Shown: positions 5,095 to 59,438 of the stretch, piece by piece
Layout of the letters: each line of letters starts with the position of its first letter
Position numbering within the stretch: the stretch's first letter is position 1
NCBI GenBank assembly: GCA_003650125.1
Contig: QNFX01000004.1
Location: forward strand, 19,738-83,737
From: Campylobacterota bacterium
GTDB lineage: Bacteria; Bdellovibrionota; Bacteriovoracia; Bacteriovoracales; Bacteriovoracaceae
DNA length: 64,000 nt
Reading direction: 5' to 3'
Position numbers and translations under genes: made by a program
The notes under the pieces: model-generated
Database searches by the model: none
What the model saw: only the letters and a program-made list of their open reading frames with translations
What the model was told of the DNA's origin: nothing

Positions 5095-5769
5095 TTAGTG
5101 CCAATGTTTCGGTGGGTCTTTTTCACCTTTTTTCAAGTCCTTAACTAGATATAGGTTGCCTCTTCCCTTAGGTTTACGACTTTTTTTGGGGCGAGACAGG
5201 TAAACCATGTAAGCATATCCAAAGGCCATAGATCCCAAATGGGCCAGCGAAATGGCCCCCATGGAAGAAAATATCCCTAAATAGATCTCCATCCCGATCA
5301 TAATCATGCAAAAATATTTCGCCTTAATGGGAAAAACGAACATAAAGGAGAATAATCTATTGGGATATAAAATAGCATAGGCCAACATTAAAAAGTTAAT
5401 GATTCCCGACAGTCCAGTAAGAATCCCTCCAGAAGAAACCAGAGATATTAAAAGATAAGTTATTCCGGCCCCTAAAACTGCCACTAAAAGAAAGCTGATA
5501 TACCTTTTTCTTCCCCATGAATGCTCAAGATCACTCCCCACAAACCATAGCAAAAGAGAGTTAAATAAGACCTCCATAAGGCCTTGACCCATAAGTGGGT
5601 AGGTCAATATTTGGTAGATATGGCCTGAAAAAAACTTGGTCCCAGAAAGACCTAGATATATCACTAAGTGAGAAAAGATACTTTGCAGAATAAAAAAGGT
5701 CACACAGGAAATAATTAAAATCTTATTAGAAAAACTGAGCGGAGGTACATGAATTTGTCCAGATTGCAT
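5095..5769 (-). CDS. rhomboid-family intramembrane serine protease
   Basis: Six or more TM segments. GLSGIINF (GxSG catalytic Ser) and a later LAHLGSMAFG (catalytic His) in the usual rhomboid spacing. Confidence 0.8.
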   Translation of the reverse strand: MQSGQIHVPPLSFSNKILIISCVTFFILQSIFSHLVIYLGLSGTKFFSGHIYQILTYPLMGQGLMEVLFNSLLLWFVGSDLEHSWGRKRYISFLLVAVLGAGITYLLISLVSSGGILTGLSGIINFLMLAYAILYPNRLFSFMFVFPIKAKYFCMIMIGMEIYLGIFSSMGAISLAHLGSMAFGYAYMVYLSRPKKSRKPKGRGNLYLVKDLKKGEKDPPKHWH

Positions 5770-5911
5770 ATCTAGCTTTCCTCTTGAGCGGGTTTTTCAT
5801 ATACTAGTTCATAACCCTTACTTTTCAATTCTAAACATTTCTTTTCAATATTTGAACAACTAAAGGAGAGATCTATCACCAAAAATTTCCTTATGAGAGA
5901 ATTCTTGATTA

Positions 5912-7870: not shown

Positions 7871-7940
7871 AAATATATTTCGGAATTTCCACCTATTTTC
7901 ATGCCTTTTAAAGAAGATGGGGGTAAAAAATACCTAGTGC

Positions 7941-23926: not shown

Positions 23927-24106
23927 TTAAGTTTTTTTGAGCTCAGGGCAGTCGTCTTTGTTGTCACAGAAATCACAATCATCATCCATTACAGCGCCTA
24001 GTCCGCCACAAGAGCCCTTTATCCTTTTATTAGAAAAGATTACTCCCACTGCCATAGCTAAAATGGTGAGTGTCATAACGGTAAGGGATAGTAAAAAATA
24101 TTTCAT
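23927..24106 (-). CDS. nqrM: (Na+)-NQR maturation protein NqrM
   Basis: Hand-translated 59-aa ORF, below the track cutoff: [59 protein letters not shown]. It has one TM helix, then KGSCGG and a C-x2-C...C cluster. Its ATG overlaps the apbE stop (ATGA). Confidence 0.8.
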
Positions 24107-37125: not shown

Positions 37126-37139
37126 TAACTAATTTATTA

Positions 37140-37234
37140 TTCCTTATCTTGCCTACCTAAAGCGAATGCAATGGAGGTAAGACGACACGGCATAACCTGG
37201 AAACGGGTATGTCTCCCGTATTTGGAGGGGAATA
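37140..37234 (+). promoter_or_regulatory. candidate molybdenum-cofactor (Moco) riboswitch in the moeA leader
   Basis: GC-enriched 112-nt leader. Its 3' segment GTCTCCCGTATTTGGAGGGG-N7-ATG closely resembles the E. coli moaA leader as I recall it (GCCTCCCGTATCTGGAAAGG-N6-ATG). An upstream helix GGCATAACC-TGGAAAC-GGGTATGTC is present. The SD lies inside the conserved 3' segment. Confidence 0.5.
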
Positions 37235-37237
37235 AAC

Positions 37238-38443
37238 ATGACATCTGTAGAACAGGCCCAAAATGCAATTTTTGCTGGTCTAATTCAAAGCAACTCTCAA
37301 AATCAAGATCTGACCGATTGGCCTGGCAAAATATTATGCCAAGAAATAACTGCTGAAAGAGATGGCCCTCCTTTTAATCGTTGTGCAATGGATGGGATTG
37401 CCATTAATTTATCCCACATAGGTAATACCGTTTTTAACTTGGAAGGAGTCCAAGCAGCTGGTGAAATACAAAAAACCTTAAACAATCCTGCCCAGGCCTT
37501 AGAAGTTATGACAGGTGCCCCACTCCCCATCGGATGTGATCTGGTTATTCCCTATGAACAGATTTCAATAAATAATGGGAATGCCGTTTTAAATCCTGGA
37601 CTCAATTTAAAACCAATGCAAAACGTCCATCAAAAGGCCTCTGATTTTAAAAAGGGTGATATTCTTCTGACCAAAGGAAGGCCCTTAAACACTCCTCAAA
37701 TAACCGTGGCCGTCTCCCAAGGTTATAACAAACTAGTTGTAAAGACCTTACCTAAAGTTGCGATCATCAGTAGTGGAGATGAGTTGGTAGATCTTGATAA
37801 AACCCCTCTCCCTCATCAAATTAGAAAATCAAATCCCTATGCAATTCAAAATGAACTTAAATCCATGAGAATTAAAGATTTGGATCTCTATCATTTAAAT
37901 GATGATTTTGATGAGTCTTATTTGTTAATAAAAGGCCTGTTGGAAAAATATCAAATTCTGGTTCTCTCAGGTGGAGTTTCTAAGGGAAAATTTGATCTTC
38001 TACCAGATGTTTTAGAAAAACTAAATGTAACTAAAGTATTTCACCGAATAACTCAGCGGCCAGGTAAACCCTTTTGGTTCGGCAAGGGAGAAAAAGGGCA
38101 AATGATCTTTGCCCTTCCAGGAAATCCCGTATCGGCACTAATCTGCCTCCGCAGATATGTAACCCCGGCCTTAAGAAAAATGGAACTAGGAAAGATGCCA
38201 AACCAACGATTTGCCATTTTAAAAGAACCAATTACCTTTAGAAAAGATTTAACCTTGTTTAAACCAGTCAAAATATCTTATTCACATGATGGTAAGACTT
38301 GGGCCACACCAGTAGAGTTAAATGGCTCTGGTGATTATTTTTCCTTGGCCGAGAGTGATGGTTTCTTAGAATTACCCAGCGAAAAACAAGATTTTTTAAG
38401 TGGCGAGTCCTATCCTCTATACCTTTGGGGGGAAAATGAATAA
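37238..38443 (+). CDS. moeA: molybdopterin molybdenumtransferase MoeA
   Basis: 401 aa. MDGIAI, MTGAPLP, ISSGDELV, LSGGVSKGKFD, LPGNPVSA blocks. Confidence 0.9.
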   Translation: MTSVEQAQNAIFAGLIQSNSQNQDLTDWPGKILCQEITAERDGPPFNRCAMDGIAINLSHIGNTVFNLEGVQAAGEIQKTLNNPAQALEVMTGAPLPIGCDLVIPYEQISINNGNAVLNPGLNLKPMQNVHQKASDFKKGDILLTKGRPLNTPQITVAVSQGYNKLVVKTLPKVAIISSGDELVDLDKTPLPHQIRKSNPYAIQNELKSMRIKDLDLYHLNDDFDESYLLIKGLLEKYQILVLSGGVSKGKFDLLPDVLEKLNVTKVFHRITQRPGKPFWFGKGEKGQMIFALPGNPVSALICLRRYVTPALRKMELGKMPNQRFAILKEPITFRKDLTLFKPVKISYSHDGKTWATPVELNGSGDYFSLAESDGFLELPSEKQDFLSGESYPLYLWGENE

Positions 38444-45633: not shown

Positions 45634-46797
45634 ATGAATATCGCAATCACAGGAATTGGCTCAATATCCCCCTTAGGCACGAACAAAAGTGATATCTGGT
45701 CTAGTTATAAGAGTCAAAACTCTTTAATAAAAAATAAGTTGATAGATGGGAAATCTGAACTCGTTGCCCCTCTAACAAAGTTGGGAGAAACAATGTTAGA
45801 TCTTTTAAAACAAGAAAGGAGAACTTACACCTCCTTGGACAGGTCTGTTTTACTATCTATTATTGCTGCTAGGAATTGTTATTTAGATGCTAAATGGAAT
45901 GAGCATGTTGGCGTCAATATTTCCTCTTCAAGGGGAGCAACAGAAACATTTGAAAAAAACCATGAAGATTTCCTCAAATTTGGAAAAGTATCCTCTCACT
46001 GTTCCCCAACCACAACGCTTGGAAATATTTCTAGCTGGGTAGCTCAAGATCTTAAACTAAAAGCAATCTCAATTGAAAATTCCATGACTTGCAGCTCGGC
46101 CTTTCATGCTCTGTTAAATGGTATTTCCTGGATTGAGTCAGGTCTTGTCAATCACTTTATTTTTGGTGGAAGTGAAGCACCGTTAACTCCCTTTACCTTG
46201 GCACAGATGAAGGCATTAAAAATATATCGCAACGATTTTGACCAACACTATCCCTGCAAACCATTTGGAAGTGATAACAGTGGAATGGTTTTAGGAGAGG
46301 GTTCTTGTGTAATGTCACTGGAAAAAATGAAAAGTAATATGAAAGTTCATGGAATAATTGAATCCATAGGTTTTGGCATAGAAAATATTAGCAGTCCTAC
46401 CTCCATATCAAGTGATGGAGTAGGTCTTGAAAATTCTATGAAATCTGCCATCGAAAAGATGAGTACTCCCAAACTCCCTGAAGTTGTCATTACCCACGCA
46501 CCAGGGACACGCAAAGGGGATAGTGCAGAGTTAAATGCTATCAAAAAAGTATTTCCTGACCTTCCTATTTTAACCTCTAATAAATGGTTAATAGGCCACA
46601 CATTAGGCGCCTCTGCGGCCTTTAGCTTGGAATATGCTTTATATATTTTAAAAAATAATGAATATATCGATTTTCCCTACAAAACCATATTTGAAAAACC
46701 AAAAAAAAATATTGAAAAAATAAACAAGGTATTGATTAATGCTACCGGTTTTGGTGGTAATTGTGTAAGCGTGGTAGTAACTCGTCCCAATCTTTAA
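45634..46797 (+). CDS. beta-ketoacyl-ACP synthase (KAS I/II-type, short form)
   Basis: Cys-His-His triad contexts: MTCSSAFHAL, THAPGT, GHTLGASA. C-terminal GFGGNCVSVVV. 387 aa. Confidence 0.8.
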   Translation: MNIAITGIGSISPLGTNKSDIWSSYKSQNSLIKNKLIDGKSELVAPLTKLGETMLDLLKQERRTYTSLDRSVLLSIIAARNCYLDAKWNEHVGVNISSSRGATETFEKNHEDFLKFGKVSSHCSPTTTLGNISSWVAQDLKLKAISIENSMTCSSAFHALLNGISWIESGLVNHFIFGGSEAPLTPFTLAQMKALKIYRNDFDQHYPCKPFGSDNSGMVLGEGSCVMSLEKMKSNMKVHGIIESIGFGIENISSPTSISSDGVGLENSMKSAIEKMSTPKLPEVVITHAPGTRKGDSAELNAIKKVFPDLPILTSNKWLIGHTLGASAAFSLEYALYILKNNEYIDFPYKTIFEKPKKNIEKINKVLINATGFGGNCVSVVVTRPNL

Positions 46798-47830
46798 AAC
46801 ACGGATTAAGTCCCATCTCTTTCAAAGAAATTATAATTTCCTCTAGAGAACGATTATCGGTGACGCTAAACTGCTCTAGATTATTATCACCAGGAGAGGT
46901 TTTTGATTCTGCACTAATATTTGTTGCACATAAGTTTAACAAGTGTCCGCGAATTGTTTCACTTTCTCTAGTCGAGAGAAGAATTGGCATCTGGGGAAAG
47001 GCCAGACGAAAGGCCAATAAAACTCGTACAAAATCCCGGTCCTCTAGGGGATACTTTATTTCTTCCAACCCAAAAGCATTTTGCAATCTTGGTATTGAAA
47101 TACTAAATGAAATATTCCAGAAATTACTTTTCAGATACCTTAGATGTGAAAAAAGAGTCAAGGCCTCAAAGCGATAATCAAAAAGTCCGCCAAGAAAACC
47201 AAGTGTTACTTTTTTAAATCCAGCTTCAATTGAACGTTCAACCCCCTCTATCCGGTAATTTAAGTTTGATTTTTGTCCTGATATATGAACATCTTTATAA
47301 GTCGGAGGATGATATGTTTCCTGGTATAAAACAAACTGGTCTGCTCCACTTTCCTGGAGAAGTCGGGCCTGATCACTTTCTAGCGCCCCAAATTCAACCG
47401 CTACTGAGGAAAATCCAACTTCAACCGCTAATTTGGTTGCTCGATTTAAATAATCAATATTGTTAAAATCTTTTAACTCTCCTGAAACTAATAAAATATT
47501 CCTGTAACCTCTTTTATATATGGATAAAAGTTCATTTTTAATCTCTTCAAGTTTTAGAGTTTTTCTTCTTATAATATTTGAGGAGCTAAACCCGCAATAA
47601 GAACAATTGTTATGACAAGCATTGGAGAGATAAAGAGGAATATAAATACCTCTAGTCTGGCCAAAAAAACGTTTGGTCAATGACTGTGCCTTTTGTGCCA
47701 TCACCTCTAAATAATCATTAGCTTGGGGTGATATCAGAGCAAGAAAATCAGACTGAGAGAATTTTTCTCTACTTAGCACCGATTCGACATCTTCTTTGCT
47801 TATCTGCTCTTCAAGGCCATATTTAAACAT
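46742..47830 (-). CDS. thiH: 2-iminoacetate synthase ThiH (tyrosine lyase, radical SAM)
   Basis: YLSNACHNNCSYCGF cluster motif and a C-terminal ..FKDWD tail as in E. coli ThiH. Coupled to thiG by an 8-nt overlap. Confidence 0.85.
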   Translation of the reverse strand: MFKYGLEEQISKEDVESVLSREKFSQSDFLALISPQANDYLEVMAQKAQSLTKRFFGQTRGIYIPLYLSNACHNNCSYCGFSSSNIIRRKTLKLEEIKNELLSIYKRGYRNILLVSGELKDFNNIDYLNRATKLAVEVGFSSVAVEFGALESDQARLLQESGADQFVLYQETYHPPTYKDVHISGQKSNLNYRIEGVERSIEAGFKKVTLGFLGGLFDYRFEALTLFSHLRYLKSNFWNISFSISIPRLQNAFGLEEIKYPLEDRDFVRVLLAFRLAFPQMPILLSTRESETIRGHLLNLCATNISAESKTSPGDNNLEQFSVTDNRSLEEIIISLKEMGLNPCFKDWDELLPRLHNYHQNR

Positions 47831-48587
47831 TTAAAAAACCGGTTAATGGACTTGAGGCCTGGGCCTTTTTATTTTGTCCAGGCATCCCACACTCAAAGGC
47901 CCATCTCCCCGAATCGGTAGCAGTTTTGAAGGCCTTCGCCATTAAAACAGGATCATTCGAGATGGCAATTGCGGTATTTACTAAAACTGCATCGGCCCCC
48001 ATTTCCATGGCCTGGGCCGCATCAGATGGTCTACCAAGTCCCGCATCTATTACAACGGGTACTCCAGCTTGTTCAATTATAATTTCGATCATTTCCTTGG
48101 TTTGAATTCCCCGATTAGTCCCTATCGGTGAGCCAAGAGGCATAACAGCGCTAACACCTACGTCCTCCAGTTTTTTGGCCAATACAGGATCTGCGTTTAT
48201 ATAGGGAAGAACCACAAAACCTTTTCTAACTAACTCATCACTTGCTTTAAGAGTTTCAACTGGATCTGGTAATAGATAGTGAGGATCTGGAATAACTTCT
48301 ATTTTAATCCAATTAACACCCAGTACTTCTCGAGACAACTCAGCATATAAAATGGCCTCTTCGGCAGTTCTCGCTCCTGAGGTATTGGGCATTAAAATGA
48401 TATTATCTGGAATACTTTGAAGAATTTGGTCCCGGGAATTCTGGGAAAAGTCCATCCTCCTCATGGAGACAGTAACCACCTCACAACAGCTTTCTTCAAT
48501 ACATTTTCTCATTATTTCATCTGACGGAAATTTTCCCGTTCCCAAAAAGAGGCGAGATAAGAGATTTTTATTAGCAATTTTTAACAT
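47823..48587 (-). CDS. thiG: thiazole synthase ThiG
   Basis: RLFLGTGKF, NWIKIEVI, VMPLGSPIGTNRG, VIDAGLG, LVNTAIA blocks. Confidence 0.9.
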   Translation of the reverse strand: MLKIANKNLLSRLFLGTGKFPSDEIMRKCIEESCCEVVTVSMRRMDFSQNSRDQILQSIPDNIILMPNTSGARTAEEAILYAELSREVLGVNWIKIEVIPDPHYLLPDPVETLKASDELVRKGFVVLPYINADPVLAKKLEDVGVSAVMPLGSPIGTNRGIQTKEMIEIIIEQAGVPVVIDAGLGRPSDAAQAMEMGADAVLVNTAIAISNDPVLMAKAFKTATDSGRWAFECGMPGQNKKAQASSPLTGFLNV

Positions 48588-48728: not shown

Positions 48729-49376
48729 ATGAATCAAACCAGTTTGATATATCAGTATTCCCATACTGAAGAATTTATTAACGGATTTACCCATCTCTTA
48801 GGGATAATCCTTGGTTTTTATATCTCTTTTGCATTACTTTCTAAGGCCATAACTAGTGGACAATATGGCCACATTTTCAGTTATCTCATTTATGGAGCTA
48901 GTTTCATTGCCTTGTTCGCATCCTCAACTTTTTATCATTTTACAAGAGAACCTAAATTAAAAATGATACTGAAAAAAGTTGACCATATTTGCATCTATAT
49001 TTTTATCGCTGCTACCTACACCCCAATCATATTAATTAAATTTCACTCACCCTGGAATCCCTGGCTTTTAATTTTAGTATGGGTACTGGCACTGGCGGGA
49101 TCAATTTACAAACTATCTGCCAAAAACCGAAATGTGTTTGTCTCTGTCGGGACTTATTTGGCGATGGGATATGTATGTATGTTGGCCATAAATCCAATGC
49201 TTGAAGTTCTCGATAAGACCTCTTTTTATTTATTATTAATTGGCGGAATATCTTTCAGTATAGGTGTAGTTTTTTATCTGCTAAAAAAAGTACCCTTTAG
49301 TCACTCAATATGGCACCTTTTTGTCTTGGCTGGCACAATATTTCACTATCTCTCAATCAATTCAATCGTTAATTAG
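48729..49376 (+). CDS. hemolysin III / PAQR-family membrane protein
   Basis: Seven TM helices with FTHLLG, SSTFYH, DHICIYIFIA and HLFVLAGTIFHY motifs. Confidence 0.85.
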   Translation: MNQTSLIYQYSHTEEFINGFTHLLGIILGFYISFALLSKAITSGQYGHIFSYLIYGASFIALFASSTFYHFTREPKLKMILKKVDHICIYIFIAATYTPIILIKFHSPWNPWLLILVWVLALAGSIYKLSAKNRNVFVSVGTYLAMGYVCMLAINPMLEVLDKTSFYLLLIGGISFSIGVVFYLLKKVPFSHSIWHLFVLAGTIFHYLSINSIVN

Positions 49377-49386
49377 GAGGAAAGTT

Positions 49387-50772
49387 TTGAAAAAGAAAAA
49401 AAGATCCTGGGCCGAACCCTATAAAATTAAAACCGTAGAACTCATCGAAATGAAAGACCTTAAAGAACGGGAAGAGGCCATTGTAGAGGCCGGATTTAAT
49501 ACCTTCCTTTTAAAAAGTAAGGATGTCTATATCGACCTCCTTACCGATAGTGGAACCAGCGCGATGAGTGATCTCCAATGGGCCGCTATGATGAGAGGAG
49601 ATGAGTCCTACGCCGGATCAAAAAATTTCTACGAACTAGAAGATACTGTTAAAAAATTTTATGGCTACAAACACCTTGTTCCCACCCACCAAGGGCGTGG
49701 AGCAGAAAATATCATGTCTCAAATTTTAATTAAAAAAGGTGATTTCATTCCCGGTAATATGTATTTTACCACTACCAGACTCCACCAGGAAATGGCCGGT
49801 GGGCAATTCATCGATGTTATTGTGGATGAGGCCCATGATCCGGAAAACACTTTCCCTTTTAAAGGTAATGTAGACATAGAAAAAATGCAGGAGCTCGTAG
49901 ACCGAGTTGGGGCCGACAGGGTTCCCTATATTAGTCTTGAGGGCAATGTAAATATGGCCGGAGGACAGCCCTTTTCTATTGCCAACTTAAAAGAGCTCCA
50001 TGCTTTTTGTAAAAAACACAATATTTTAATAATGCTTGATGCTACAAGAACTGTAGAAAATGCCTACTTTATTAAAATACAGGAAAAAGGTTATGAAGAT
50101 AAAAGCATCGAAGAAATTTTACTTGAAATCTGCTCTTATACTGATGGCTGTACCATCTCGGCAAAAAAAGACTGCCTAGTAAACATTGGTGGCTTCTTTG
50201 CCTGTAATGATGATGAAATCTATAGAAGGGCACAAAACCTAGTTGTAATTTATGAAGGACTTCATACCTATGGTGGACTGGCCGGAAGAGACATGGCCGC
50301 CATGGCCCAAGGGATTAGGGAAAGTGTCATGTTTGAACATCAACAAGCACGAGTTGGACAAGTGAAATACCTGGGAGAACAAATTAGAGACTATGGAGTT
50401 CCTATTGTAGAACCAGTGGGATCTCATGCCATATTTTTAAATGCAGGGAAAATTCTTTCTCACTTAGATCAAGATGAATATCCAGCACAAACCCTCTCGG
50501 CCGAACTCTATATTGAAAATGGAATTCGTTCCATGGAAAGAGGAAATGTTTCTGCCGGTAGAGATCCGGGGACAGGTCAAAATAGAAGGCCTAAGCTTGA
50601 ACTTATTAGACTTACAATCCCCAGAAGAGTCTATACCCAGGCCCATATGGATGTTGTAGCAGAGTCAGTGGCCGCGGTTTATGAAAGAAGAAAAAATATT
50701 AAAGGCCTAGAAATGACCTATGAACCGGAATATTTGCGATTTTTTCAATCAAGATTTAAACGAAAAAAATAG
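49387..50772 (+). CDS. tpl: beta-eliminating lyase, most like tyrosine phenol-lyase
   Basis: Long collinear matches to Citrobacter TPL as I recall it: YIDLLTDSGT.AMSD, VPTHQGRGAEN, GNMYFTTTR, DATR.VENAYFIK, the PLP-lysine context KKDCLVNIGGF, and RPKLE..RLTIPRRVYT.AHMDVVA. E. coli tryptophanase differs at these blocks (NYFFDTTQ, KKDAMVPMGG). TTG start behind AGGAGG. Confidence 0.75.
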   Translation: MKKKKRSWAEPYKIKTVELIEMKDLKEREEAIVEAGFNTFLLKSKDVYIDLLTDSGTSAMSDLQWAAMMRGDESYAGSKNFYELEDTVKKFYGYKHLVPTHQGRGAENIMSQILIKKGDFIPGNMYFTTTRLHQEMAGGQFIDVIVDEAHDPENTFPFKGNVDIEKMQELVDRVGADRVPYISLEGNVNMAGGQPFSIANLKELHAFCKKHNILIMLDATRTVENAYFIKIQEKGYEDKSIEEILLEICSYTDGCTISAKKDCLVNIGGFFACNDDEIYRRAQNLVVIYEGLHTYGGLAGRDMAAMAQGIRESVMFEHQQARVGQVKYLGEQIRDYGVPIVEPVGSHAIFLNAGKILSHLDQDEYPAQTLSAELYIENGIRSMERGNVSAGRDPGTGQNRRPKLELIRLTIPRRVYTQAHMDVVAESVAAVYERRKNIKGLEMTYEPEYLRFFQSRFKRKK

Positions 50773-50774
50773 TT

Positions 50775-51074
50775 TCATATTCTTTTTGAATGTTGAAATG
50801 ATGGAACTAATTCGTTTATATCTTGTTTAGGCCAATTGATGATTCCTCCAACGAAGATATTCACTTTGGTAAAATTCTCATCCTCTAAAATATCACGGGC
50901 CAATTGAGACCTTGTACCTGATTGACATAAAATCACGATTTCTTTGTTTTTTAATTGTTCCAATTCATTTAATCGCGTTGGCAAATCACTAAGGGGAATA
51001 TTAAGACCTCCAACATTATAGGTCTCATACTCATGATTTTCTCTTATATCGAGAATAAAAGGTGTACCTTCCAT
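50775..51074 (-). CDS. single-domain rhodanese-like protein
   Basis: 99 aa. ILDIRE..EY and the active-site loop CQSGTRS. Begins 4 nt after the DUF2063 gene. Confidence 0.8.
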   Translation of the reverse strand: MEGTPFILDIRENHEYETYNVGGLNIPLSDLPTRLNELEQLKNKEIVILCQSGTRSQLARDILEDENFTKVNIFVGGIINWPKQDINELVPSFQHSKRI

Positions 51075-51078
51075 AGAT

Positions 51079-51852
51079 TTAAACCAACTCGACTATAATA
51101 CCGCTAGTGGCGATAAAATTGAAAAGAGATTGAACCTCTTGTGGTTCCAATGAAGAATTTTCAAGTGCTGTTTCTAAATTCAGTCCCTGATTTAATTTAT
51201 CTAAAATATCAACCTGCTCAGGTTTTAAAAACTTAGTGTGAATCCCCTGGGAACTTTTATATAAGCAGATACTTTCTGGAGCATTCCAATCTAGATCGAT
51301 TGCATTCCTTTCTTCCAGTGGAATATTTTTCAAATCCCAGATTTTATAAATGGGAAAATTAGATTTTTGTAAATAAAAAGATTCAGCAAACTTAAACTTG
51401 ATCTTAGACAAGTCAGAACAAGATTTTAGTTGTTCCTCCCCTAAGGCCTTTTGAATGGGTAGATGAAAAATTCGCATAAACTGTTTATCGAGATGACAAA
51501 GCTCAAAAAGGAAAGGAAATTCCTCGCCAAGAGGGTGATCTTTTACAAATTGGTCTAAGTCTTCACCAAAATCCCCAATATCAAAAGATTTGGACCGGTG
51601 ATCAATTAGATATTCTTCACATAAAGAAAAAAATAATTTATCCCCGAGAAGTGACCAAGTTCCCTCGTAATTTTCACCCAACACTGAGGTCAGTCTGGCC
51701 ACATAATCATCTCGATAAACCTGTAGGGCCGCCGAGATATCAATTTTTCCTGCGGGAATTATAGCATCGAGGAGATCTTTTTCATTTTCTCCCGTGAGAA
51801 TACTTTTTCCAAATAGTTTTTGTGATTTTTCAATTCCTAATTCACCTATCAT
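51079..51852 (-). CDS. DUF2063-family partner protein of the MNIO (MbnC/BufC/HvfC-like)
   Basis: The N-terminal half matches the DUF2063 pattern (LQVYRDDYVARLTSVLGENYEGTWSLLGDKLFFSLCEEYLIDH.S.S.DIGDFGEDLDQFV). It overlaps the DUF692 gene by 11 nt. Confidence 0.7.
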   Translation of the reverse strand: MIGELGIEKSQKLFGKSILTGENEKDLLDAIIPAGKIDISAALQVYRDDYVARLTSVLGENYEGTWSLLGDKLFFSLCEEYLIDHRSKSFDIGDFGEDLDQFVKDHPLGEEFPFLFELCHLDKQFMRIFHLPIQKALGEEQLKSCSDLSKIKFKFAESFYLQKSNFPIYKIWDLKNIPLEERNAIDLDWNAPESICLYKSSQGIHTKFLKPEQVDILDKLNQGLNLETALENSSLEPQEVQSLFNFIATSGIIVELV

Positions 51853-52657
51853 GATGCCTCTGCCAAATTTTCTGGGCCTTTAAGGCCTCTTCTTCTAGGT
51901 GGGGAAACGCGGGAATATCATCATCCCATTCCAGTAAAACTGGAACGTCCTTTAGGTCCTTAATTACATAAGAAAAAAGATCCCAAACTTCGGGATAGAC
52001 TGGTTTACTATGGGTATCGAATAAAAAATCCCCCATATCCGTATATCCCGCCAGATGAATCTGGACTACCTTATCTTTTGGTATATGGTCCAAATAAACT
52101 TTTGGATCATAATTAAAGTTTACAGAATTTACATAAACATTATTAACATCAAGTAGGATATTGCAGCCAGTTTGTTCAACCAACTTTTTAATAAACTCCC
52201 ATTCAGTATAAGTTGATTCCTTATAATCCACATAAGCAGTGGGGTTTTCTAAAACCATTGGCCGTCCCAAAATAGATTGAATTTTATCTAACTTGGAAGC
52301 AATATGATTTAAAGATTTATCAGTATAAGGAACAGGTAAAAGATTATGAAAATTTGAATCGGGTAGACCTGTCCAACAAAGGTGATCAGATACAATGAAG
52401 GGATCAAAAACATCAATCATGTATTTTAATTTTTCTAGATAATCCAAATTAAGTGGATCATAGGATCCTATAGATAAGGAAACTCCATGAAAAGCTAGAG
52501 GATACTTTTCTCTTATAAATTTTAAGATATCCCAAGGTCTTCCTCTGGAGTTCATATAATTTTCAGAGATAACCTCAAACCATTTTATATTAGTAGGAGG
52601 GTTTTTTTCTAAATAAGAATAATGTTCGGCCCGAAGACCTACGCCAATATTGCACAT
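51842..52657 (-). CDS. DUF692 / MNIO (multinuclear non-heme iron oxidase, MbnB/BufB/HvfB-like)
   Basis: IGVGLR, WFEVISENY, HGVSLSIGS, SDHLCW, LENP, LLDVNNVYVN, IHLAGY, DTH, LEWD are the metal-ligand blocks of the UPF0276/DUF692 TIM barrel. The start is ambiguous (ATG 52657 or TTG 52684). Confidence 0.85.
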   Translation of the reverse strand: MCNIGVGLRAEHYSYLEKNPPTNIKWFEVISENYMNSRGRPWDILKFIREKYPLAFHGVSLSIGSYDPLNLDYLEKLKYMIDVFDPFIVSDHLCWTGLPDSNFHNLLPVPYTDKSLNHIASKLDKIQSILGRPMVLENPTAYVDYKESTYTEWEFIKKLVEQTGCNILLDVNNVYVNSVNFNYDPKVYLDHIPKDKVVQIHLAGYTDMGDFLFDTHSKPVYPEVWDLFSYVIKDLKDVPVLLEWDDDIPAFPHLEEEALKAQKIWQRHHDR

Positions 52658-52748
52658 GCCGGATATAAAACCACAAATTAACAAAACTTATTATCTTTAA
52701 AACACACTTAATGATAACTCTCACATCTTTTAATGATTTTTTGTTCTG

Positions 52749-54341
52749 CTAATGCTTTAACTTTTTAGCTAAATACTCATCATAAGAGATATACTCATCA
52801 TCAATCACGGTGCCATCAATTTCAATAATTCTATCAGCGATGGTTTGAATAAATTCATGGTCATGAGAAGTAAAAAGCAAAGTACCTTTAAAATCGATCA
52901 GGCCATTATTTACGGCCGTAATACTCTCAAGATCTAAATGGGCAGTAGGGCCATCTAAAAGTAAAAGGTTAGATCCAGAAAGCATCATTTTTGCAAGCAT
53001 GCAACGAACCTTCTCTCCCCCTGATAAGACATTCGTTTTCTTTAATGATTCTTCTCCTGTAAATAACATTTTACCTAAAAAGCTTCGTAAAAAAGACTCA
53101 TGCTGATCTTTTGAAAACTGTCTTAACCAATTGATAATATCTAGCTTTCCGCTATCAAAATAACTAGAATTATCGCTTGGGAAATAAGCTTTAGTAATCG
53201 TCACTCCCCAAGTAAACTCTCCGGCATCGGGTTCAAGCTCTCCCATGAGTATTTGAAAAAGGGTTGTTTTTGCCAAATCACTACTACTAAGAAAAATAAT
53301 TTTATCTCCCTTCTTAACTGTGAAACTAACATTATCGAGAATCTTAACTCCATCAATAGACTTGCTGATCCCTGTAACGGTTAAAATATCCTTACCGGCC
53401 TCTCGATTAGGTTTAAATTGCACAAAGGGATATTTACGAGTTGAAACAGGTAAATCCTTTAGTTGTAATTTATCCAGTTGTTTTTGTCTGGAAGTTGCCT
53501 GCTTGGACTTTGAAGCATTGGCACTAAAGCGCTGAATAAATGCCTTTAAATCGTTTGCTTTATCTTCCATCTTTTTATTTTCATTAGACCTTAAATTTCT
53601 TGCAAGCTCCGAAGAGGTGCGCCAAAACTCATAATTTCCCGTGTAGTTGTTGATTTTTTGATAATCAATATCAGCGATATGAGTACAGACTTTATTGAGA
53701 AAATGTCGATCGTGAGAGACGACAATAACAGTATTTTTAAAATCCATAATAAAATTTTCCAACCACTGGATGGAGGCAATATCTAAATGGTTGGTTGGCT
53801 CATCAAGAAGTAAAATATCAGGATTGCCAAAAATCGCCTGGGCCAATAAGACTTTGACTTTTTCAGCTCCATTTAATTCTTTCATCTTTTTATCAAGATA
53901 TTTTGCTCCAAGACCAAGTCCGGCCAATAAACTTCCAGCTTCGGACTCTGCCTCCCAGCCATTGAGTTCAGAGAACTGATCCTCAAGCTCTGAGGCCTTT
54001 ATTCCATCTTCATCAGTAAAATTTTCTTTTGCGTAAATGACATCTTTTGCCACAATAATTTTATGTAAATCTTGATTCCCCATTAAAATGGTATTTAAAA
54101 CTTGTTCCTCTTCATAGGCATAATGATCTTGTTTTAAAATAGAAAGTCGCTCACCAGGAGTAATATTAACCTGTCCACTTTGAGCTTCGATTTCACTGGA
54201 TAAGATTTTTATGAAAGTTGATTTTCCTGCACCATTGGCACCTATTAATCCGTAGCAGTTACCTGGCATGAACTTAATATTTACGTCTTCAAATAATTTT
54301 TGTCCGCCATAACTCATGGTGATATTGCTGGTGCTAATCAT
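52749..54341 (-). CDS. ABC-F family ATPase (YbiT-like, no TM domain)
   Basis: Two ABC cassettes (GANGAGKST ... LSGAEKVKV.. LLLDEPTNHLD; second LSGGEKVR ... LLLDGPTAHLD) joined by a charged linker. Confidence 0.9.
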   Translation of the reverse strand: MISTSNITMSYGGQKLFEDVNIKFMPGNCYGLIGANGAGKSTFIKILSSEIEAQSGQVNITPGERLSILKQDHYAYEEEQVLNTILMGNQDLHKIIVAKDVIYAKENFTDEDGIKASELEDQFSELNGWEAESEAGSLLAGLGLGAKYLDKKMKELNGAEKVKVLLAQAIFGNPDILLLDEPTNHLDIASIQWLENFIMDFKNTVIVVSHDRHFLNKVCTHIADIDYQKINNYTGNYEFWRTSSELARNLRSNENKKMEDKANDLKAFIQRFSANASKSKQATSRQKQLDKLQLKDLPVSTRKYPFVQFKPNREAGKDILTVTGISKSIDGVKILDNVSFTVKKGDKIIFLSSSDLAKTTLFQILMGELEPDAGEFTWGVTITKAYFPSDNSSYFDSGKLDIINWLRQFSKDQHESFLRSFLGKMLFTGEESLKKTNVLSGGEKVRCMLAKMMLSGSNLLLLDGPTAHLDLESITAVNNGLIDFKGTLLFTSHDHEFIQTIADRIIEIDGTVIDDEYISYDEYLAKKLKH

Positions 54342-54416: not shown

Positions 54417-55163
54417 CTAAGAGTCTGTAACTACCAATAAGTTGGGGTTTTCTGTTTCTAACTGAATCACTTTTTGAATAAAGCTTAATGTTGAAGTTAA
54501 AGAGTAATTACAATTTATACAGGCACCCAAATATTCTATCGCCACCATCGAATCATCTACAAATACAGGGGTAACCCCTCCCCCATCAAGACCTAGCGGT
54601 TTAGCTATAAACTTGAATATAATATCATCTATAATATTTTTTTTCTCATTAGTGTTTAGCTCTAAAAACTTGGCCTGAGAAATCGTAGGACTGTCTCCAG
54701 GTCTGTAATCATCATTGATATTTGGAGACCTTTTTTCTTTACTCTGAGGTTCCTCAATATTAGTGAGGCCTTTTACTACTTTATCAAATATTGGAATCAA
54801 AGAGTTATATCCCTCCTCATACGAGGGTGTGATATTATCATTTCTTAGAAAACTTTCTACCTCACGAATACTAATGGATTTTAATCTTGTTATATCCTGG
54901 CCATTTAAAAGTTCAATTAATGCATCTAAAAAGGAAAGTTTTTCATCTGTAATATTTGAGGAATATTTTATACCAGCAAAAACGGAAGGCATTTGATTTT
55001 TATCCAGGATACCAAAAATCAAAATTTGCCCATGATGACTTGATGAATCTATTTCAAAAGAAAAAGAACCTGGAATATTATCATTTAAAAAGAGTTCACG
55101 CTCTTTTAAATCTTCTCTAAAAAGAGGCTTTTTCATCCGCTGTAAAACTTTTTCAGAATACAT
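54417..55163 (-). CDS. NifU-like protein (Cys-less IscU-sized N-domain plus C-terminal Nfu CxxC domain)
   Basis: C-terminal GGGVTPVFVDDSMVAIEYLGACINCNYS matches the Nfu/NifU C-terminal domain. The N-terminal region resembles the ORF at 17658-18371 in layout. Confidence 0.55.
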   Translation of the reverse strand: MYSEKVLQRMKKPLFREDLKERELFLNDNIPGSFSFEIDSSSHHGQILIFGILDKNQMPSVFAGIKYSSNITDEKLSFLDALIELLNGQDITRLKSISIREVESFLRNDNITPSYEEGYNSLIPIFDKVVKGLTNIEEPQSKEKRSPNINDDYRPGDSPTISQAKFLELNTNEKKNIIDDIIFKFIAKPLGLDGGGVTPVFVDDSMVAIEYLGACINCNYSLTSTLSFIQKVIQLETENPNLLVVTDS

Positions 55164-55168
55164 TATAC

Positions 55169-55444
55169 CTACTTAGACATAAGCAAATTTGCTTTTTCAA
55201 AATCCTTACTCTCTAAGGCCTGATGAACCTCATCCAGATTTTTAAGATTGAGAGCTTCAGAATCAAAAAACTTAACTGTGATAATGGCCGCAATTTCCAT
55301 CATTTTAACTGAGGCCTTAACAATTTCTTCTCTTTGCTCCTCAGTCTTTTCCTCAAAGGAGATTGTCTCTTCTAAGGTCTCAAAGGCGTAATGGCCTATG
55401 ACAGTTAATAAATTTCCAAGCGAATCATCGCTAATTTTTGACAT
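55169..55444 (-). CDS. hypothetical acidic protein (91 aa)
   Basis: ORF with tight spacing to its neighbours. No Cys, no signal peptide, no motif recognised. Confidence 0.45.
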   Translation of the reverse strand: MSKISDDSLGNLLTVIGHYAFETLEETISFEEKTEEQREEIVKASVKMMEIAAIITVKFFDSEALNLKNLDEVHQALESKDFEKANLLMSK

Positions 55445-55475
55445 CTTAAGTCCTCTTTAATTGTTTATGGCCTTT

Positions 55476-56015
55476 TTATATTTGGAAAGTGCTAATTTGG
55501 CCAATTTCTTTAAATTGAGCGACCTGATCCTTATAATTCACCTCAACAAGGTTAAATAAGGGCAGCATGAGCTTATCACCATCTTTATGTTCACTATTAA
55601 GACCTTCGGCAAACCGATATAGGACATTATCTTCCTTATGAATATGTTCCTCTAGAGTGCGTATATAGAGTTCCATTGTGTCCTTGAAGATAGGCCATTT
55701 ACTCAAATCTCCTTTAGCTATTTTCTCTAACTCGTAATCGGCCTGACTAATCAGCGCCCTAGTTTGTTTGTGTTCGTGGAGCATACATTTAAGGGGCCCA
55801 TGTTCTAACTCTGGATTTTTTTCTTGCATCCACGGAAAATAGATATCCTCTTCCTTGATATGGTGAAATTTATCAGCATAGATCTTTAAAAAGGAAATAA
55901 AATATTGCCATGTTTTAACGTTCTGCCAATTTGGAGAGGAAAAAACATCCTTCATCTTTCCTAGATGTCTTAAAATATCTTGATGTTCCTCTTTGAGGAT
56001 TTCAGTAACCTTCAA
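55476..56015 (-). CDS. hemerythrin-like (HHE cation-binding) domain protein
   Basis: ILKEEHQDI, FHHIKEEDIYFPW, MLHEHKQ, HIHKEDNVLY. The His/Glu ligand spacing is that of hemerythrin-type di-iron domains. Confidence 0.7.
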   Translation of the reverse strand: MKVTEILKEEHQDILRHLGKMKDVFSSPNWQNVKTWQYFISFLKIYADKFHHIKEEDIYFPWMQEKNPELEHGPLKCMLHEHKQTRALISQADYELEKIAKGDLSKWPIFKDTMELYIRTLEEHIHKEDNVLYRFAEGLNSEHKDGDKLMLPLFNLVEVNYKDQVAQFKEIGQISTFQI

Positions 56016-56057
56016 AAAAAGCTCCTTTAAAAGAGGCGACCTAGGGCCGCCCTGAAT

Positions 56058-57824
56058 TTATGCTTCTTTTAGTAAATAATCTAAAGAAAACTTCCCATTT
56101 CCGGCCCAGGCCAAAACTCCAAGGCAGGCCAGAACTAACATGGAAAATTGTAGTTCCTCTCCCGCGCCAAAAAATGGTGAGCTCCGATGAACGAATAAAA
56201 TGGCCCCAAGCAGAACCGACATATTAATCACCGAAGCAAACCTTGTGGCAAATCCAAGAGCTATGGAAATTCCTCCCACCACGTGGGCAAAGATTACATA
56301 CCAGGCAGTCACGTTTTGAAACTGACCGATTTGACCGGTGAGAACTTCAAGTGCCTGCATATTTATAATGAAATAGATTCCCTTAATTGCTAAGGCCCCT
56401 CCTAAAAACATTCTCAGTAAATCAAGAGGTGCAAATGATCTGATCAGCTCTGGTAAAAGAACCGGTTGGATATCTCCCTTGGCCTTTTTTCTTTCCTTTT
56501 CTAAGGCAATTCTTTTCTGATGGGCATCATAATGGGCCTTCTTGGCCTCTTGTTCAGCTTGAGGTGAAAAGCGAACTGCTAAGGCAAAAAAGGATAGGCC
56601 TATAACCACAAATCCTAAAATCATTAAGGCCTGAGGATAGGAAAGGTCAGGTGATCTAAAAAGAAAACCGGCGGCAACTGCCCCTAAATTCCCTCCAGCT
56701 CCAACAATTCCTGAAACTGCTCCTAAGGCCTTTTTATTAACGAAGGGTACTACTGAATATGTAGCACCTTCCGACATTTGCGTAAAAAGAGAAAAGATAA
56801 CCATGGTGCCAATAGCTAGAGGAAGAATGGTCATACGCGAGAAGATAATGAGAGCAAAACCTTCGACCAAAATTGCTAAGAAGAGCCATTTAACCCTTCC
56901 TCTAAGTCCCCATTTATGGCCAAATTTATCACCAATTATACCACCAGTAGTTCGAGCAAATATATTCATCAGCCCAAACAGTCCGGCCACCAGACCTGCA
57001 GTTTTAACTCCCAGGCCAAAATAATCTTTAAAATAGAGAGCGGCAATATTGTTAATGGTTAGCTCGATACCAAAACAGGCACCATAAACAAAAAACAGCA
57101 TCCAAACCCGGGAATCCTTTAAAGCATCTAAAAAGGATCCACCTGATTTTATATTTTCCTTTCTTTGATGGGTAATTCCTAGTTCCTTATAGTTCCCATC
57201 TGGAAGGTCTGTGGTTAGGTAGTAATAGGCAATACCGGTAACAAAACAAACCGCCCCGGCAATTACCATGGCCAAGCGCCATGACCAAAAGGTGGAAAAT
57301 CCCATGGCGATAAAAGCGGCAAAAACCAAAGGCATAATCATCTGGGTTACCCCGCCTCCGAGATTCCCCCAACCAGCGGTAGTGGCATTAGCTGTTCCCA
57401 CCACATTGGGTGCAAACATTACGGAAGTGTGAAATTGGGTAATAACAAAAGAAGCACCAATGGCGCCGATTGCTAAACGAAAAAGTAAAAAAGTTTCATA
57501 GTTGTGAGCGAAACCAATTCCCATGACCGGCAAAGACCCAAGCATTAAAAGCCATGTATAACTGAGCCTTGGCCCAATTCTATCACAGAGCCAACCAACA
57601 AAAAGTCTGGCAACAATAGTAATTGCCACGGAGGCGATAATGGTATTTCCAATTTGCGTTTTAGTTAAATGAAGTTCTTCCCGAACAATGGCCATCAGGG
57701 GCGCAATACCAAACCAGGCAAAAAAACATAAGAAGAAGGCAAACCATGTAACATGGAATGCCCGCATCGGTCTGGTAGAAAAGTTAAAAAGATCAATCTT
57801 GGTCGCTTGGTTTTTAATTTCCAT
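56058..57824 (-). CDS. NNP-family nitrate/nitrite transporter fused to a C-terminal DoxX-like domain
   Basis: 12-TM MFS with TAGWGNLGGG and GAGGNLG nitrate-signature motifs. A Lys/Glu-rich linker follows, then a ~123-aa four-helix segment (LRMFLGGALAIKG ... GNGKFSLDYLL) matching the DoxX pattern. Confidence 0.8.
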   Translation of the reverse strand: MEIKNQATKIDLFNFSTRPMRAFHVTWFAFFLCFFAWFGIAPLMAIVREELHLTKTQIGNTIIASVAITIVARLFVGWLCDRIGPRLSYTWLLMLGSLPVMGIGFAHNYETFLLFRLAIGAIGASFVITQFHTSVMFAPNVVGTANATTAGWGNLGGGVTQMIMPLVFAAFIAMGFSTFWSWRLAMVIAGAVCFVTGIAYYYLTTDLPDGNYKELGITHQRKENIKSGGSFLDALKDSRVWMLFFVYGACFGIELTINNIAALYFKDYFGLGVKTAGLVAGLFGLMNIFARTTGGIIGDKFGHKWGLRGRVKWLFLAILVEGFALIIFSRMTILPLAIGTMVIFSLFTQMSEGATYSVVPFVNKKALGAVSGIVGAGGNLGAVAAGFLFRSPDLSYPQALMILGFVVIGLSFFALAVRFSPQAEQEAKKAHYDAHQKRIALEKERKKAKGDIQPVLLPELIRSFAPLDLLRMFLGGALAIKGIYFIINMQALEVLTGQIGQFQNVTAWYVIFAHVVGGISIALGFATRFASVINMSVLLGAILFVHRSSPFFGAGEELQFSMLVLACLGVLAWAGNGKFSLDYLLKEA

Positions 57825-57839
57825 AAAAAATGATCCTCC

Positions 57840-59438
57840 CTAAGGATTTTTATAATCGGCCTTAGGCCCTAAATAATACCACCAGTTTAAAACGGCACAG
57901 AAAAGATAAAAAGCTGCAAATCCGTACAGTGCATACTCCGGAGTAGTCGCTTTAATCTGTTCACCAAAAACTTTTGGAATAATAAAAGCACCATAAGCTG
58001 CAACTGCTGAAGTCCAGCCAAGAACAGGTCCTCTTTGCTCTTGATTGAAAATCACGGCGATAGTTCTAAAGGTAGAACCATTACCAATTCCAGTGGCCAA
58101 AAATAGTAGTAAAAAGAGCAGAAAGAAAGGCATGAAAAACTGCTCTGGAGTGGCAGACATATAAGCTGCGTGCATATAGTAGGCAACACCTAAAGCAGCA
58201 CCAACCATAGTTAACGAACAAATTTGAGTAACTAAGGCGCCACCAACTCTATCAGATATCCATCCTCCTACTGGTCGAATTAAAGCTCCAATAAAAGGTC
58301 CAAGCCAGGCGTAGGCCAAGGCCGAAGGGCCATTAGGATTAATCATACTGTGATCAAATACTCCACCTGGGCCTGCGATATGTTGAAAGCCAAAGATAAC
58401 TTTAATGGAAAGAGGAAAGGCCGCAGAAAAGCCGATAAAACTTCCAAAGGTCATGGTGTAGATGATAGTCATGACCCAATTGTGTTTATTTTTAAAAATT
58501 GCGTACTGTCTTGTTAGTGATTCTTTTAACTGTCCCGGAGATAGCAGTTTCATGAGATAAACAGTTGAGACAATGACGATAGGAAGCACGAGCCATTTAG
58601 ACAATCCAACTTTTAAAAGCAAAACAAGTCCAAAGATAGCGGTGACAAATCCTAAAAATAAAAGCCAACTCATCTTGCCAATAGCGGCCAAGGTTGAATC
58701 TACATTAGGAGATACTTGCTGCGTTTTTATATTGTTCATTTTAAAGAAGGCCATAATTACAAAAACAATCAGGATAGGTACCCAAATAAGACCTGCATTG
58801 TGAATATAAGATAATTCGCCAACGGGTATTTTGCCGAGCAGAGAACCACTTGGCTTAATCAAGGTCATTGGAGTTCCACCAAAAAGCCCAAAGGTCATAA
58901 CGAGTGGAACTAAAATTTGCATGGTGGTTACACCAAAGTTTCCAAGTCCCGCATTTAATCCTAAGGCCATCCCTTGAACTTTTTTGGGGTAGAAAAAGGA
59001 AATATTGCTCATAGAGGAAGCAAAGTTTCCGCCACCAAAACCAGAGAGCAGGGCGAGAAGTTGAAATATCCACAAGGGAGTATTTTGGTCTTGCAACGCA
59101 ATCCCCACTCCTAATGCAGGAAGGATGAGCAGTGCTGAGGTCCAAAAAATAGTATTTCGTCCTCCGCAAGGACGGATAAAAAAAGTACTTGGAATTCGAA
59201 GAGTCGCACCGGTTAGTCCCGCAATGGCCATCAGGGTAAAGAGTTCACCTTTTTCAAAAGGAAAACCCACATTGAGCATTTGTACTGTGATAATACTCCA
59301 GTATAACCACACGGCAAAACCGCATAAAAGGTTGGGGATAGAAACCCATAAGTTCCGACTGGCAATCTGTTTGCCCGTGGAATTCCAAAAGGATTCATCC
59401 TCTACATTCCACTCCGTTAAATTAGTTTTATCGCTCAT
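57840..59438 (-). CDS. narK: nitrate/nitrite antiporter NarK
   Basis: Collinear with E. coli NarK as I recall it: IASRNLWVSIP, GGRN, GFGGGNFASSMSNISFFYPK, GLNAGLGNFGV. Confidence 0.9.
   Translation of the reverse strand: MSDKTNLTEWNVEDESFWNSTGKQIASRNLWVSIPNLLCGFAVWLYWSIITVQMLNVGFPFEKGELFTLMAIAGLTGATLRIPSTFFIRPCGGRNTIFWTSALLILPALGVGIALQDQNTPLWIFQLLALLSGFGGGNFASSMSNISFFYPKKVQGMALGLNAGLGNFGVTTMQILVPLVMTFGLFGGTPMTLIKPSGSLLGKIPVGELSYIHNAGLIWVPILIVFVIMAFFKMNNIKTQQVSPNVDSTLAAIGKMSWLLFLGFVTAIFGLVLLLKVGLSKWLVLPIVIVSTVYLMKLLSPGQLKESLTRQYAIFKNKHNWVMTIIYTMTFGSFIGFSAAFPLSIKVIFGFQHIAGPGGVFDHSMINPNGPSALAYAWLGPFIGALIRPVGGWISDRVGGALVTQICSLTMVGAALGVAYYMHAAYMSATPEQFFMPFFLLFLLLFLATGIGNGSTFRTIAVIFNQEQRGPVLGWTSAVAAYGAFIIPKVFGEQIKATTPEYALYGFAAFYLFCAVLNWWYYLGPKADYKNP

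Follow-up and report, generated by a model that had tools for sequence, protein, structure and literature searches.

A bufferin maturase pair with no adjacent precursor gene and a trailing minimal rhodanese in a Bacteriovoracaceae-type genome: a probable paralogue of a complete BufA2-type locus

Introduction

In the bufferin system, the MNIO (DUF692) oxidase BufB and its partner BufC are necessary and sufficient to convert cysteines of the precursor BufA to 5-thiooxazoles, a chemistry which requires no external sulfur and for which both the signal peptide and DoxX are dispensable (PMC11626156). The bufABC gene order is described as strictly conserved and lipoprotein signal peptides are present in about 16% of Buf2 precursors (PMC11626156, PMC12452194), with DoxX being absent from the Caulobacter buf2 cluster (PMC11626156). 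MNIO substrates are diverse, some clusters are without a recognised precursor, precursor genes that stand alone are common, and the counts of precursors, MNIOs and partners in a genome are reported to differ (PMC12452194). Here we describe a bufBC-type gene pair, designated bufB'-bufC', which is followed by a rhodanese gene and is located in a 64,000 nucleotide (nt) stretch of contig QNFX01000004.1 (assembly GCA_003650125.1), referred to in its full length as the window. We favour, with some reserve, the reading that this locus is a paralogous bufferin maturation module of the BufA2 type which has been retained and acts in trans on an unlinked BufA2.

The window locus resembles Caulobacter vibrioides bufferin 2 (BufA2/BufB2/BufC2, BUF_6/12Cys family) in combining a BufB-type MNIO with an overlapping partner of ∼255 amino acids (aa), DUF2063 plus RRE, in the absence of DoxX, and its sister loci, as in Buf2, carry six-Cys precursors, mostly with lipoprotein signal peptides. 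It differs from Buf2 in having no precursor in cis, in a rhodanese gene translationally coupled behind bufC, and in being embedded in a nitrate-transport and iron-sulfur (Fe-S) repair array and not in a copper context.

Results

The window locus encodes a BufB/BufC pair and a stand-alone rhodanese

Three tightly packed minus-strand genes constitute the locus, with coordinates confirmed from both the open reading frame (ORF) list and the sequence.

51842-52657, minus strand: bufB', BufB-type MNIO (DUF692) oxidase, 271 aa from ATG, paralogous copy
51079-51852, minus strand: bufC', DUF2063/HvfC_N plus (predicted) RRE-type partner, PME-type 1, 257 aa, 11-nt overlap with bufB'
50775-51074, minus strand: stand-alone, minimal rhodanese, 99 aa, loop CQSGTRS, starting 4 nt past the bufC' stop
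52658-52748, no strand: intergenic gap between an ABC-F ATPase gene and bufB', 91 nt (64 nt with the TTG start), the position of bufA2 in relatives, containing no precursor

The MNIO matches Pfam PF05114 (E = 1.7e-100) and passes the NCBIfam equivalog NF050167, MNIO_BufB, with 341 bits (cutoff 310), lying far under the cutoffs of HvfB, ApyH (83.8 bits versus 400), MbnB (55 versus 325) and ChrH (52.7 versus 600). The pair does not carry the subfamily-specific MNIO and partner which define the methanobactin (MbnBC), pearlin (TglHI) and chryseobasin systems. The N-terminus, MCNIGVGL, is that of the relatives, with an alternative TTG start at 52684 extending the protein to 280 aa. Compared with 23 relatives, 83 of the 85 columns with a conservation of 90% or more are retained, the deviations being S140T and F183Y, and the other sequences range from 0 to 9 deviations. 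BufC' matches PF09836 with 49.2 bits (cutoff 27.2) and is homologous over its full length to 84 BufC proteins, and aligns from end to end with BufC of the canonical loci described below; it deviates at 12 of 33 conserved columns, relative to 9–11 in relatives of its clade and a family maximum of 17. A sequence search of the PDB with BufC' returned no match. Thus, by every sequence test applied, the locus is a BufB/BufC pair, one which lacks the cis-encoded precursor of a bufferin cluster.

The 99-aa protein matches PF00581 with 37.3 bits (cutoff 22.2) and carries a catalytic Cys in a six-residue loop, a Cys which is conserved both in the orthologue of a second species (CQLGLRS) and in the ThiF fusions of related loci. 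It has a single Cys, Cys50, and no signal peptide; an AlphaFold model, built from a two-sequence alignment, has a low predicted local distance difference test (pLDDT) value of 48. The protein is a true rhodanese domain and not a ThiF fusion. Relative to the PspE and GlpE rhodaneses, it is similar in length (about 85–108 aa) and in its single catalytic Cys, differing in being cytoplasmic, without a signal peptide, and in a conserved 20-aa C-terminal tail (…F.HSKRI); the match to PspE itself is weak, 28.8 bits. With ThiF/MoeZ-type fusions it shares a homologous rhodanese domain, the C-x-x-G-x-[RK]-S loop and the same genomic slot, differing in the absence of an adenylation domain, and therefore the window rhodanese would be unable to activate ThiS or MoaD itself. 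A first-pass annotation made from the sequence had proposed an MNIO overlapping a DUF2063 partner by 11 nt and a 99-aa CQSGTRS rhodanese 4 nt downstream, and both proposals are confirmed by the coordinates and by the matches to PF05114, PF09836 and PF00581.

No precursor is detected in cis in the window

Over the whole 64 kb, tblastn with the precursors of three relatives gave a best E of 1.5, and the lowest E obtained with an iterated precursor hidden Markov model (HMM), run over the segments of all six frames, was ∼1. A physico-chemical screen of the 64 kb for small, signal-peptide bearing Cys ORFs returned one gene, which is also the sole small Cys-rich membrane ORF in the window.

23927-24106, minus strand: NqrM (Na+-NQR maturation factor), 59 aa, single transmembrane segment, four Cys; PF04400, 43.7 bits

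The sole ORF touching the gap upstream of bufB' is a GTG ORF of 44 aa (52590-52724), which has a single Cys, matches no family and overlaps the bufB' start out of frame. A promoter-like match within the gap (52717-52690, minus strand) is at chance level in the promoter scan. The earlier claims that the gap is precursor-free and that no small Cys-bearing ORF with a signal peptide lies nearby are therefore borne out by tblastn, HMM and ORF screening, the second being extended to the complete window.

Related loci carry a BufA2-type precursor and lead into a thiamine gene array

The closest relatives, termed canonical here (L003/L088, L087, L005 and L006), encode an MNIO 64–74% identical to that of the window and a BufC with 43–60% identity. 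Their genes are arranged on one strand in the order lipoprotein precursor (83–85 aa), bufB, bufC, a ThiF-rhodanese fusion of 345–358 aa, thiC, thiO, thiS, thiG and thiDE, the fusion gene starting no more than ∼5 nt from the bufC stop or overlapping it in L003, L005, L006 and L087. These four loci resemble the window in the bufB-bufC order, the overlap, and a rhodanese domain encoded immediately after bufC, and differ in that bufA2 is present upstream, the rhodanese is the C-terminal domain of a ThiF fusion, and thi genes follow. In L003 (7710-15940), as also in L005, L006 and L087, bufA2BC runs straight into thiF/rhd-thiC-thiO-thiS-thiG-thiDE, with gaps between bufC, thiF-rhd and thiC of at most ∼60 nt, and the array may constitute a bufferin-thiamine super-operon.

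A Cys-rich precursor of 82–86 aa is encoded directly upstream in all seven related locus types (L003/L088, L087, L005, L006, L089, L090 and L093), in which MNIO identity to the window is 59–74%, and most of these precursors have a lipobox-type signal peptide. In canonical precursors a lipobox is accompanied by six other Cys, which lie in the motif GECHGxNSCKGxGACGGxGHSCAGQNKCKGxGWLK. Three precursors were scanned with the NCBIfam BufA2 equivalog (cutoff 60), two of which pass (66.8 and 68.5 bits), with that of L003 scoring 58.3 bits; the L003 bufA2 gene, at 7710-7967 of that contig and encoding 85 aa, has a TTG start and was overlooked by the gene caller. In L089 (65% MNIO identity) and L090 (59%), a minus-strand gene and a histidine kinase gene lie between bufABC and the ThiF-rhodanese-thiC that comes after them, and in L093 (59–60%) two bufA2 copies, bufB and bufC are followed by an opp transporter, with no ThiF. 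The intervening genes of L089 and L090 and the lack of ThiF in L093 therefore indicate that bufABC and thiF-rhd are separate units, contiguous in one sub-clade. The two L093 precursor genes (5471-6023; 86 and 84 aa) are arranged in tandem upstream of one bufBC pair and preceded by YceI, and the order YceI-bufA-bufB is found in L005, L006 and L093. In Rfam searches L089 alone gave a thiamine pyrophosphate (TPP) riboswitch, which is located between thiF-rhd and thiC; none reached the gathering score in the window, L003, L005, L006 or L090.

A complete paralogous locus is present in the same metagenome-assembled genomes

The window MNIO is identical to proteins of two metagenome-assembled genomes (MAGs), DRQ88 and DRQ89, which are labelled Epsilonproteobacteria/Campylobacterota, and every relative found belongs to the Bdellovibrionota. 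Proteins P0001 and P0002 are each found in both MAGs, P0002 being the MNIO of L003, which is 74% identical to the window MNIO and is encoded directly downstream of a BufA2-type precursor. The tetranucleotide correlation between the window and L003 is 0.989, relative to 0.986–0.989 for quarters of the window against the remainder and 0.95–0.98 for contigs of related species. Among the L003 genes outside bufABC that were tested, only ThiG and the rhodanese domain have a window counterpart, none being found for LeuRS and eight other genes. Because the MAGs are shared, the composition matches and the other L003 genes tested have no counterpart, the two loci were treated, with the usual MAG caveat, as paralogues of one genome. 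Ka/Ks (the ratio of non-synonymous to synonymous substitution rates) between the window and L003 is limited by saturated synonymous divergence (dS). The suggestion in the first-pass annotation that the substrate is encoded elsewhere is supported by the L003 locus with its adjacent BufA2-type precursor gene.

The rhodanese occupies the position of the ThiF-rhodanese fusion gene

The C-terminal domain of the L003 ThiF-rhodanese is the best match to the window rhodanese among the loci examined, 46–47% identity, and the best NCBIfam matches are MoeB/MoeZ-type rhodanese domains. The start of the rhodanese gene relative to the bufC stop is that of the ThiF-rhodanese fusion genes. No ThiF remnant was detected with a ThiF HMM over the window (best E 0.79), only six in-frame codons precede the rhodanese start, and the protein is without the N-terminal segment of the fusion proteins. 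Its N-terminal extent is equal to that of the 85-residue PspE chain 2jtq, with which it aligns from residue 5. In a neighbour-joining tree of MNIO plus BufC, the window copy is sister to (L003, L087) in 200 of 200 bootstraps and, with the same support, is placed inside the clade in which thiF/rhd abuts bufC; root-to-tip lengths of the window copy are equal to those of other members, with no acceleration in rate. ThiF or rhodanese was encoded after bufC in 0 of 73 diverse bufBC loci, as determined by a Pfam scan of the next gene, and ThiF plus rhodanese followed bufC only in the three clade loci scanned (L003, L005 and L006).

These results suggest that the rhodanese is adjacent to bufC' because of descent, since sister loci carry ThiF-rhodanese directly after bufC, and that the BufBC-rhodanese linkage is syntenic and not general. 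The literature searched contains no link between MNIO/DUF692 proteins and a rhodanese, in agreement with the earlier remark that a rhodanese is not known at this operon position in described MNIO clusters, and neither rhodanese nor ThiF is mentioned in the MNIO atlas and its supplements. The further proposal that the rhodanese is a substrate or persulfide donor in a new MNIO chemistry finds no support beyond adjacency, given the inherited thiF-rhd synteny and the 73 loci without it. A canonical precursor beside relatives and elsewhere in the genome had been named in advance as evidence against that proposal, and a BufA2-type precursor is present in both places, beside the relatives and in the same MAGs.

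bufC' and the rhodanese gene are under purifying selection in a second species

A search with the rhodanese recovered one other protein, P0132, also 99 aa and 71% identical, encoded on a 1573-nt contig (L094) from a different sample, SOLA22. This contig contains the last 11 MNIO codons, a BufC of 257 aa (77% identical), the rhodanese gene 4 nt later and a convergent phenol-lyase gene, the lyase being 89% identical over 154 aa to that of the window; contig and window are collinear and have 80% of their nucleotides in common. Nei-Gojobori estimates of Ka/Ks for the two sequences are 0.12 for BufC', 0.28 for the rhodanese (Fisher p=2e-5 versus equal rates) and 0.066 for the lyase control, with dS of 0.6–1.3. 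Purifying selection acts on bufC' and on the rhodanese gene. All three window genes appear to be maintained by selection, as indicated by low Ka/Ks, conserved residues and the PspE-like length of the rhodanese. A candidate interpretation of the rhodanese as a decaying fragment was rejected, as its L094 orthologue has a Ka/Ks of 0.28 and PspE has the same short N-terminus. The rhodanese linkage is kept in this second species under purifying selection, and it is absent from the 73 diverse loci. A metagenome scan with BufC' for additional loci of the window type (BufC-rhodanese-lyase) returned only L003-type loci, L087 and L088, and this arrangement has been found in two species.

Loci without a recognisable precursor recur in the Bdellovibrionota

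A survey of 80 diverse bufB loci from one-genome-per-species contigs, a set which does not include the source species and in which the best match is 58% identical, detected a precursor beside the MNIO in ∼60 loci using precursor HMMs and no candidate precursor upstream of bufBC in nine. Such orphans account for five of the ten Bdellovibrionota loci (L012, L015, L017, L024 and L030). In Bdellovibrio bacteriovorus strain s4 (L017, 5360-7567), YceI ends 9 nt before bufB and no precursor is recognisable; orphans of this type resemble the window in having BufB and BufC without a precursor and differ in the upstream YceI and the absence of a rhodanese. The number of Bdellovibrionota orphans and the abutment of YceI on bufB in L017 therefore indicate that independent loss of the cis precursor recurs in the phylum. 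To our knowledge, precursor-less Bdellovibrionota bufBC loci have not been discussed in the literature consulted. DoxX is encoded after bufC in four surveyed loci.

In six other surveyed loci (L036, L048, L049, L050, L061 and L070), Cys-rich proteins of 500–760 aa, encoded upstream of bufB and ending at about 5950, replace the small precursor and share a common N-terminal motif (…VNVELFTIPLYM…). Similar but less alike long Cys-rich proteins precede bufB in L047 and L053. The long Cys-rich proteins are possibly large MNIO substrates.

Neighbourhood of the locus

The genes flanking the locus are as follows.

52749-54341, minus strand: ABC-F ATPase, ABC_tran x2 + ABC_tran_Xtn; NF011646, 612 bits, under the cutoff of 762
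49321-50772, plus strand: tyrosine phenol-lyase, convergent, downstream; TIGR02618, 740 bits versus a cutoff of 720.7
47823-48587, minus strand: thiG, Pfam ThiG, on the strand of the rhodanese
46742-47830, minus strand: thiH, Pfam Radical_SAM/BATS, on the strand of the rhodanese
56058-57824, minus strand: NarK-DoxX fusion, MFS_1 + DoxX, ∼3.4 kb upstream; context only, not a BufD equivalent

The neighbours named in the first-pass annotation, an ABC-F gene upstream and a convergent lyase gene downstream, are confirmed, the lyase being identified as tyrosine phenol-lyase by TIGR02618. The ABC-F gene stands in place of the YceI/bufA2 context of the relatives. thiG-thiH lies ∼3 kb from the rhodanese gene, separated from it by the tyrosine phenol-lyase gene and a HlyIII-family gene on the opposite strand, and no thiS, thiF or thiC accompanies thiG-thiH in the window. 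As tyrosine is the substrate of ThiH, the position of a tyrosine phenol-lyase gene near thiGH is, speculatively, perhaps not accidental.

Upstream of bufB', a tight same-strand array (54417-57824, minus strand) encodes NarK-DoxX, a hemerythrin/RIC-like protein at 55476-56015, a protein of 91 aa which matches no family, a NifU-like protein and the ABC-F, and a second NarK is encoded at 57840-59438. By its gene content, the array points to nitrosative stress or Fe-S repair as the setting of the orphan maturase. NarK-DoxX scores 18 bits against the HvfX family (cutoff 80), and a stand-alone DoxX (BufD) gene is not present in the cluster. The first-pass annotation had pointed to the DoxX module as displaced; the NarK fusion ∼3.4 kb upstream is present as described, but the missing DoxX gene is no anomaly, given that the Caulobacter buf2 cluster is without one and DoxX is dispensable for modification (PMC11626156). 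NarK-DoxX is a rare fusion: in a search of 1.84 billion representative proteins, among the matches listed only P0253 (593 aa, 66% identity, full-length) and the fragment P0298 cover the DoxX part, the others stopping at the NarK part. Terminator-like hairpins number 18 between 50500 and 58000 of the window relative to 6.1 ± 3.1 in shuffled sequence (∼3-fold), and are mostly intragenic. A molybdenum-cofactor riboswitch (RF01055, 45.7 bits, gathering score 36) is located at 37130-37245 on the plus strand.

Discussion

The finding is mostly explained as a known type of bufferin maturase with an unusual history. The simplest history would be duplication followed by loss. In a Bacteriovoracaceae-like ancestor, bufA2-bufB-bufC would have come to abut the ThiF-rhodanese gene at the head of a thiamine operon; bufB-bufC-thiF/rhd would then have been duplicated, with the copy losing bufA2 at its 5' edge, and the ThiF adenylation domain would have been lost, probably by an internal in-frame deletion which kept the start 4 nt after bufC, leaving bufB'-bufC' and a minimal PspE-like rhodanese. 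BufB', as a multi-iron oxidase, and BufC', as the precursor-binding partner, would convert cysteines to 5-thiooxazoles in the cytoplasm on an unlinked BufA2 destined for Sec/lipoprotein export, either the 85-aa precursor of the canonical locus or another, stand-alone one, and the exported product would bind copper. The rhodanese would bear a persulfide on Cys50 and serve in sulfur transfer which has no part in the MNIO reaction. That reaction would use the cysteine's own sulfur and, as it has no need of external sulfur, the rhodanese has no obvious role in it. The likeliest role of the rhodanese would be in ThiS/thiazole synthesis with the nearby thiG-thiH. Such a role fits its ancestry and the location of thiG-thiH 3 kb away, the link being a weak one because ThiG of the window has only 41–43% identity to that of the canonical loci. 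New chemistry is not needed, because the same genome has a complete copy and the rhodanese would be inherited from a neighbouring thiamine-pathway gene.

Several observations weigh against action in trans of a retained paralogue. The same-genome status of the window and L003 rests on MAG binning and composition, and no precursor tagged DRQ88 or DRQ89 was present among the best 120 profile-search matches. Window ThiG is only 41–43% identical to ThiG of the canonical loci, and therefore the thiGH neighbourhood falls outside the duplication. BufC' shares only 55% identity with canonical BufC, and specificity may therefore differ; the pairing of BufB'C' with the L003 BufA2 is itself a putative one. 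The L094 contig ends before the MNIO start, leaving the precursor position outside it. In addition, a translationally coupled rhodanese kept behind bufC' in two species fits a functional link as well as it does simple inheritance, and why two maturase pairs should have been kept for so long when one precursor is known is left unaccounted for.

The leading alternative, which we nonetheless consider unlikely, is that the trio is neofunctionalised, with BufB'C' acting on a non-bufferin substrate and the rhodanese being either a partner, as persulfide donor or acceptor, or itself modified. The lack of a cis precursor in the window speaks for such a trio, as do the 4-nt BufC'-rhodanese junction and 99-aa length conserved under purifying selection in the second species, the conserved catalytic Cys of the rhodanese, the retention of the paralogue since before the split of L003 and L087, and the lack of any description of an MNIO-rhodanese link in the literature searched. 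However, the adjacency is fully accounted for by inherited thiF-rhd synteny, the arrangement was seen in none of the 73 other loci, and neither the MNIO nor BufC' has unusual substitutions at conserved positions or a change in rate. Moreover, bufferin chemistry needs no external sulfur (PMC11626156), and the rhodanese has a single Cys and no signal peptide. A functional BufBC-rhodanese link is unlikely in our estimation. Similarly improbable is the specific form in which a precursor-less BufB/BufC-rhodanese module acts on a non-bufferin substrate, or couples MNIO oxidation to rhodanese persulfide chemistry, by exaptation of a rhodanese from the thi operon.

Far less credible is a decaying remnant, in which partial duplication left a dead bufBC and a truncated rhodanese. 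Loss of the precursor and of the ThiF domain, a rhodanese without the N-terminal segment of the fusions, and the restriction of the arrangement to two species could be read in this manner, but all three ORFs are intact, Ka/Ks between the two species is well below one for both genes measured at dS of 0.6–1.1, the MNIO retains its conserved residues with normal branch lengths, and the 85-residue PspE chain has the same N-terminal extent. An unrecognised cis precursor, whether the 44-aa ORF, the NifU-like protein or the 91-aa protein, has equally little to recommend it: MNIO substrates are diverse with some clusters lacking a recognised precursor (PMC12452194) and NarK, the rhodanese and the genes between them are closely packed on one strand, but the first candidate overlaps bufB' in another frame, has a single Cys and matches no family, the second has an ordinary Nfu CxxC motif, the third has no Cys, and the MNIO is a BufB equivalog, with BufA2 as the precursor used by all its sisters.

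If the neofunctionalised trio were the true explanation, the locus would represent a new type of MNIO partner or substrate. Irrespective of this, the question is raised of what maintains, in two species, a maturase pair which has no precursor gene beside it and is coupled to a rhodanese and, more broadly, what the substrates are of bufBC enzymes without a cis precursor, which account for about one tenth of surveyed loci and half of those in the Bdellovibrionota. If BufB'C' is a paralogous pair which has been kept and modifies an unlinked BufA2 in trans, the locus would be a concrete case of bufferin maturases working at a distance from the genes of their precursors, and would show that an accessory gene which looks 'suspicious' may be a piece of an adjacent operon. 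In genome mining, loci of this kind would be lost to rules that insist on the bufABC order, and rules based on co-occurrence would read too much into the rhodanese.

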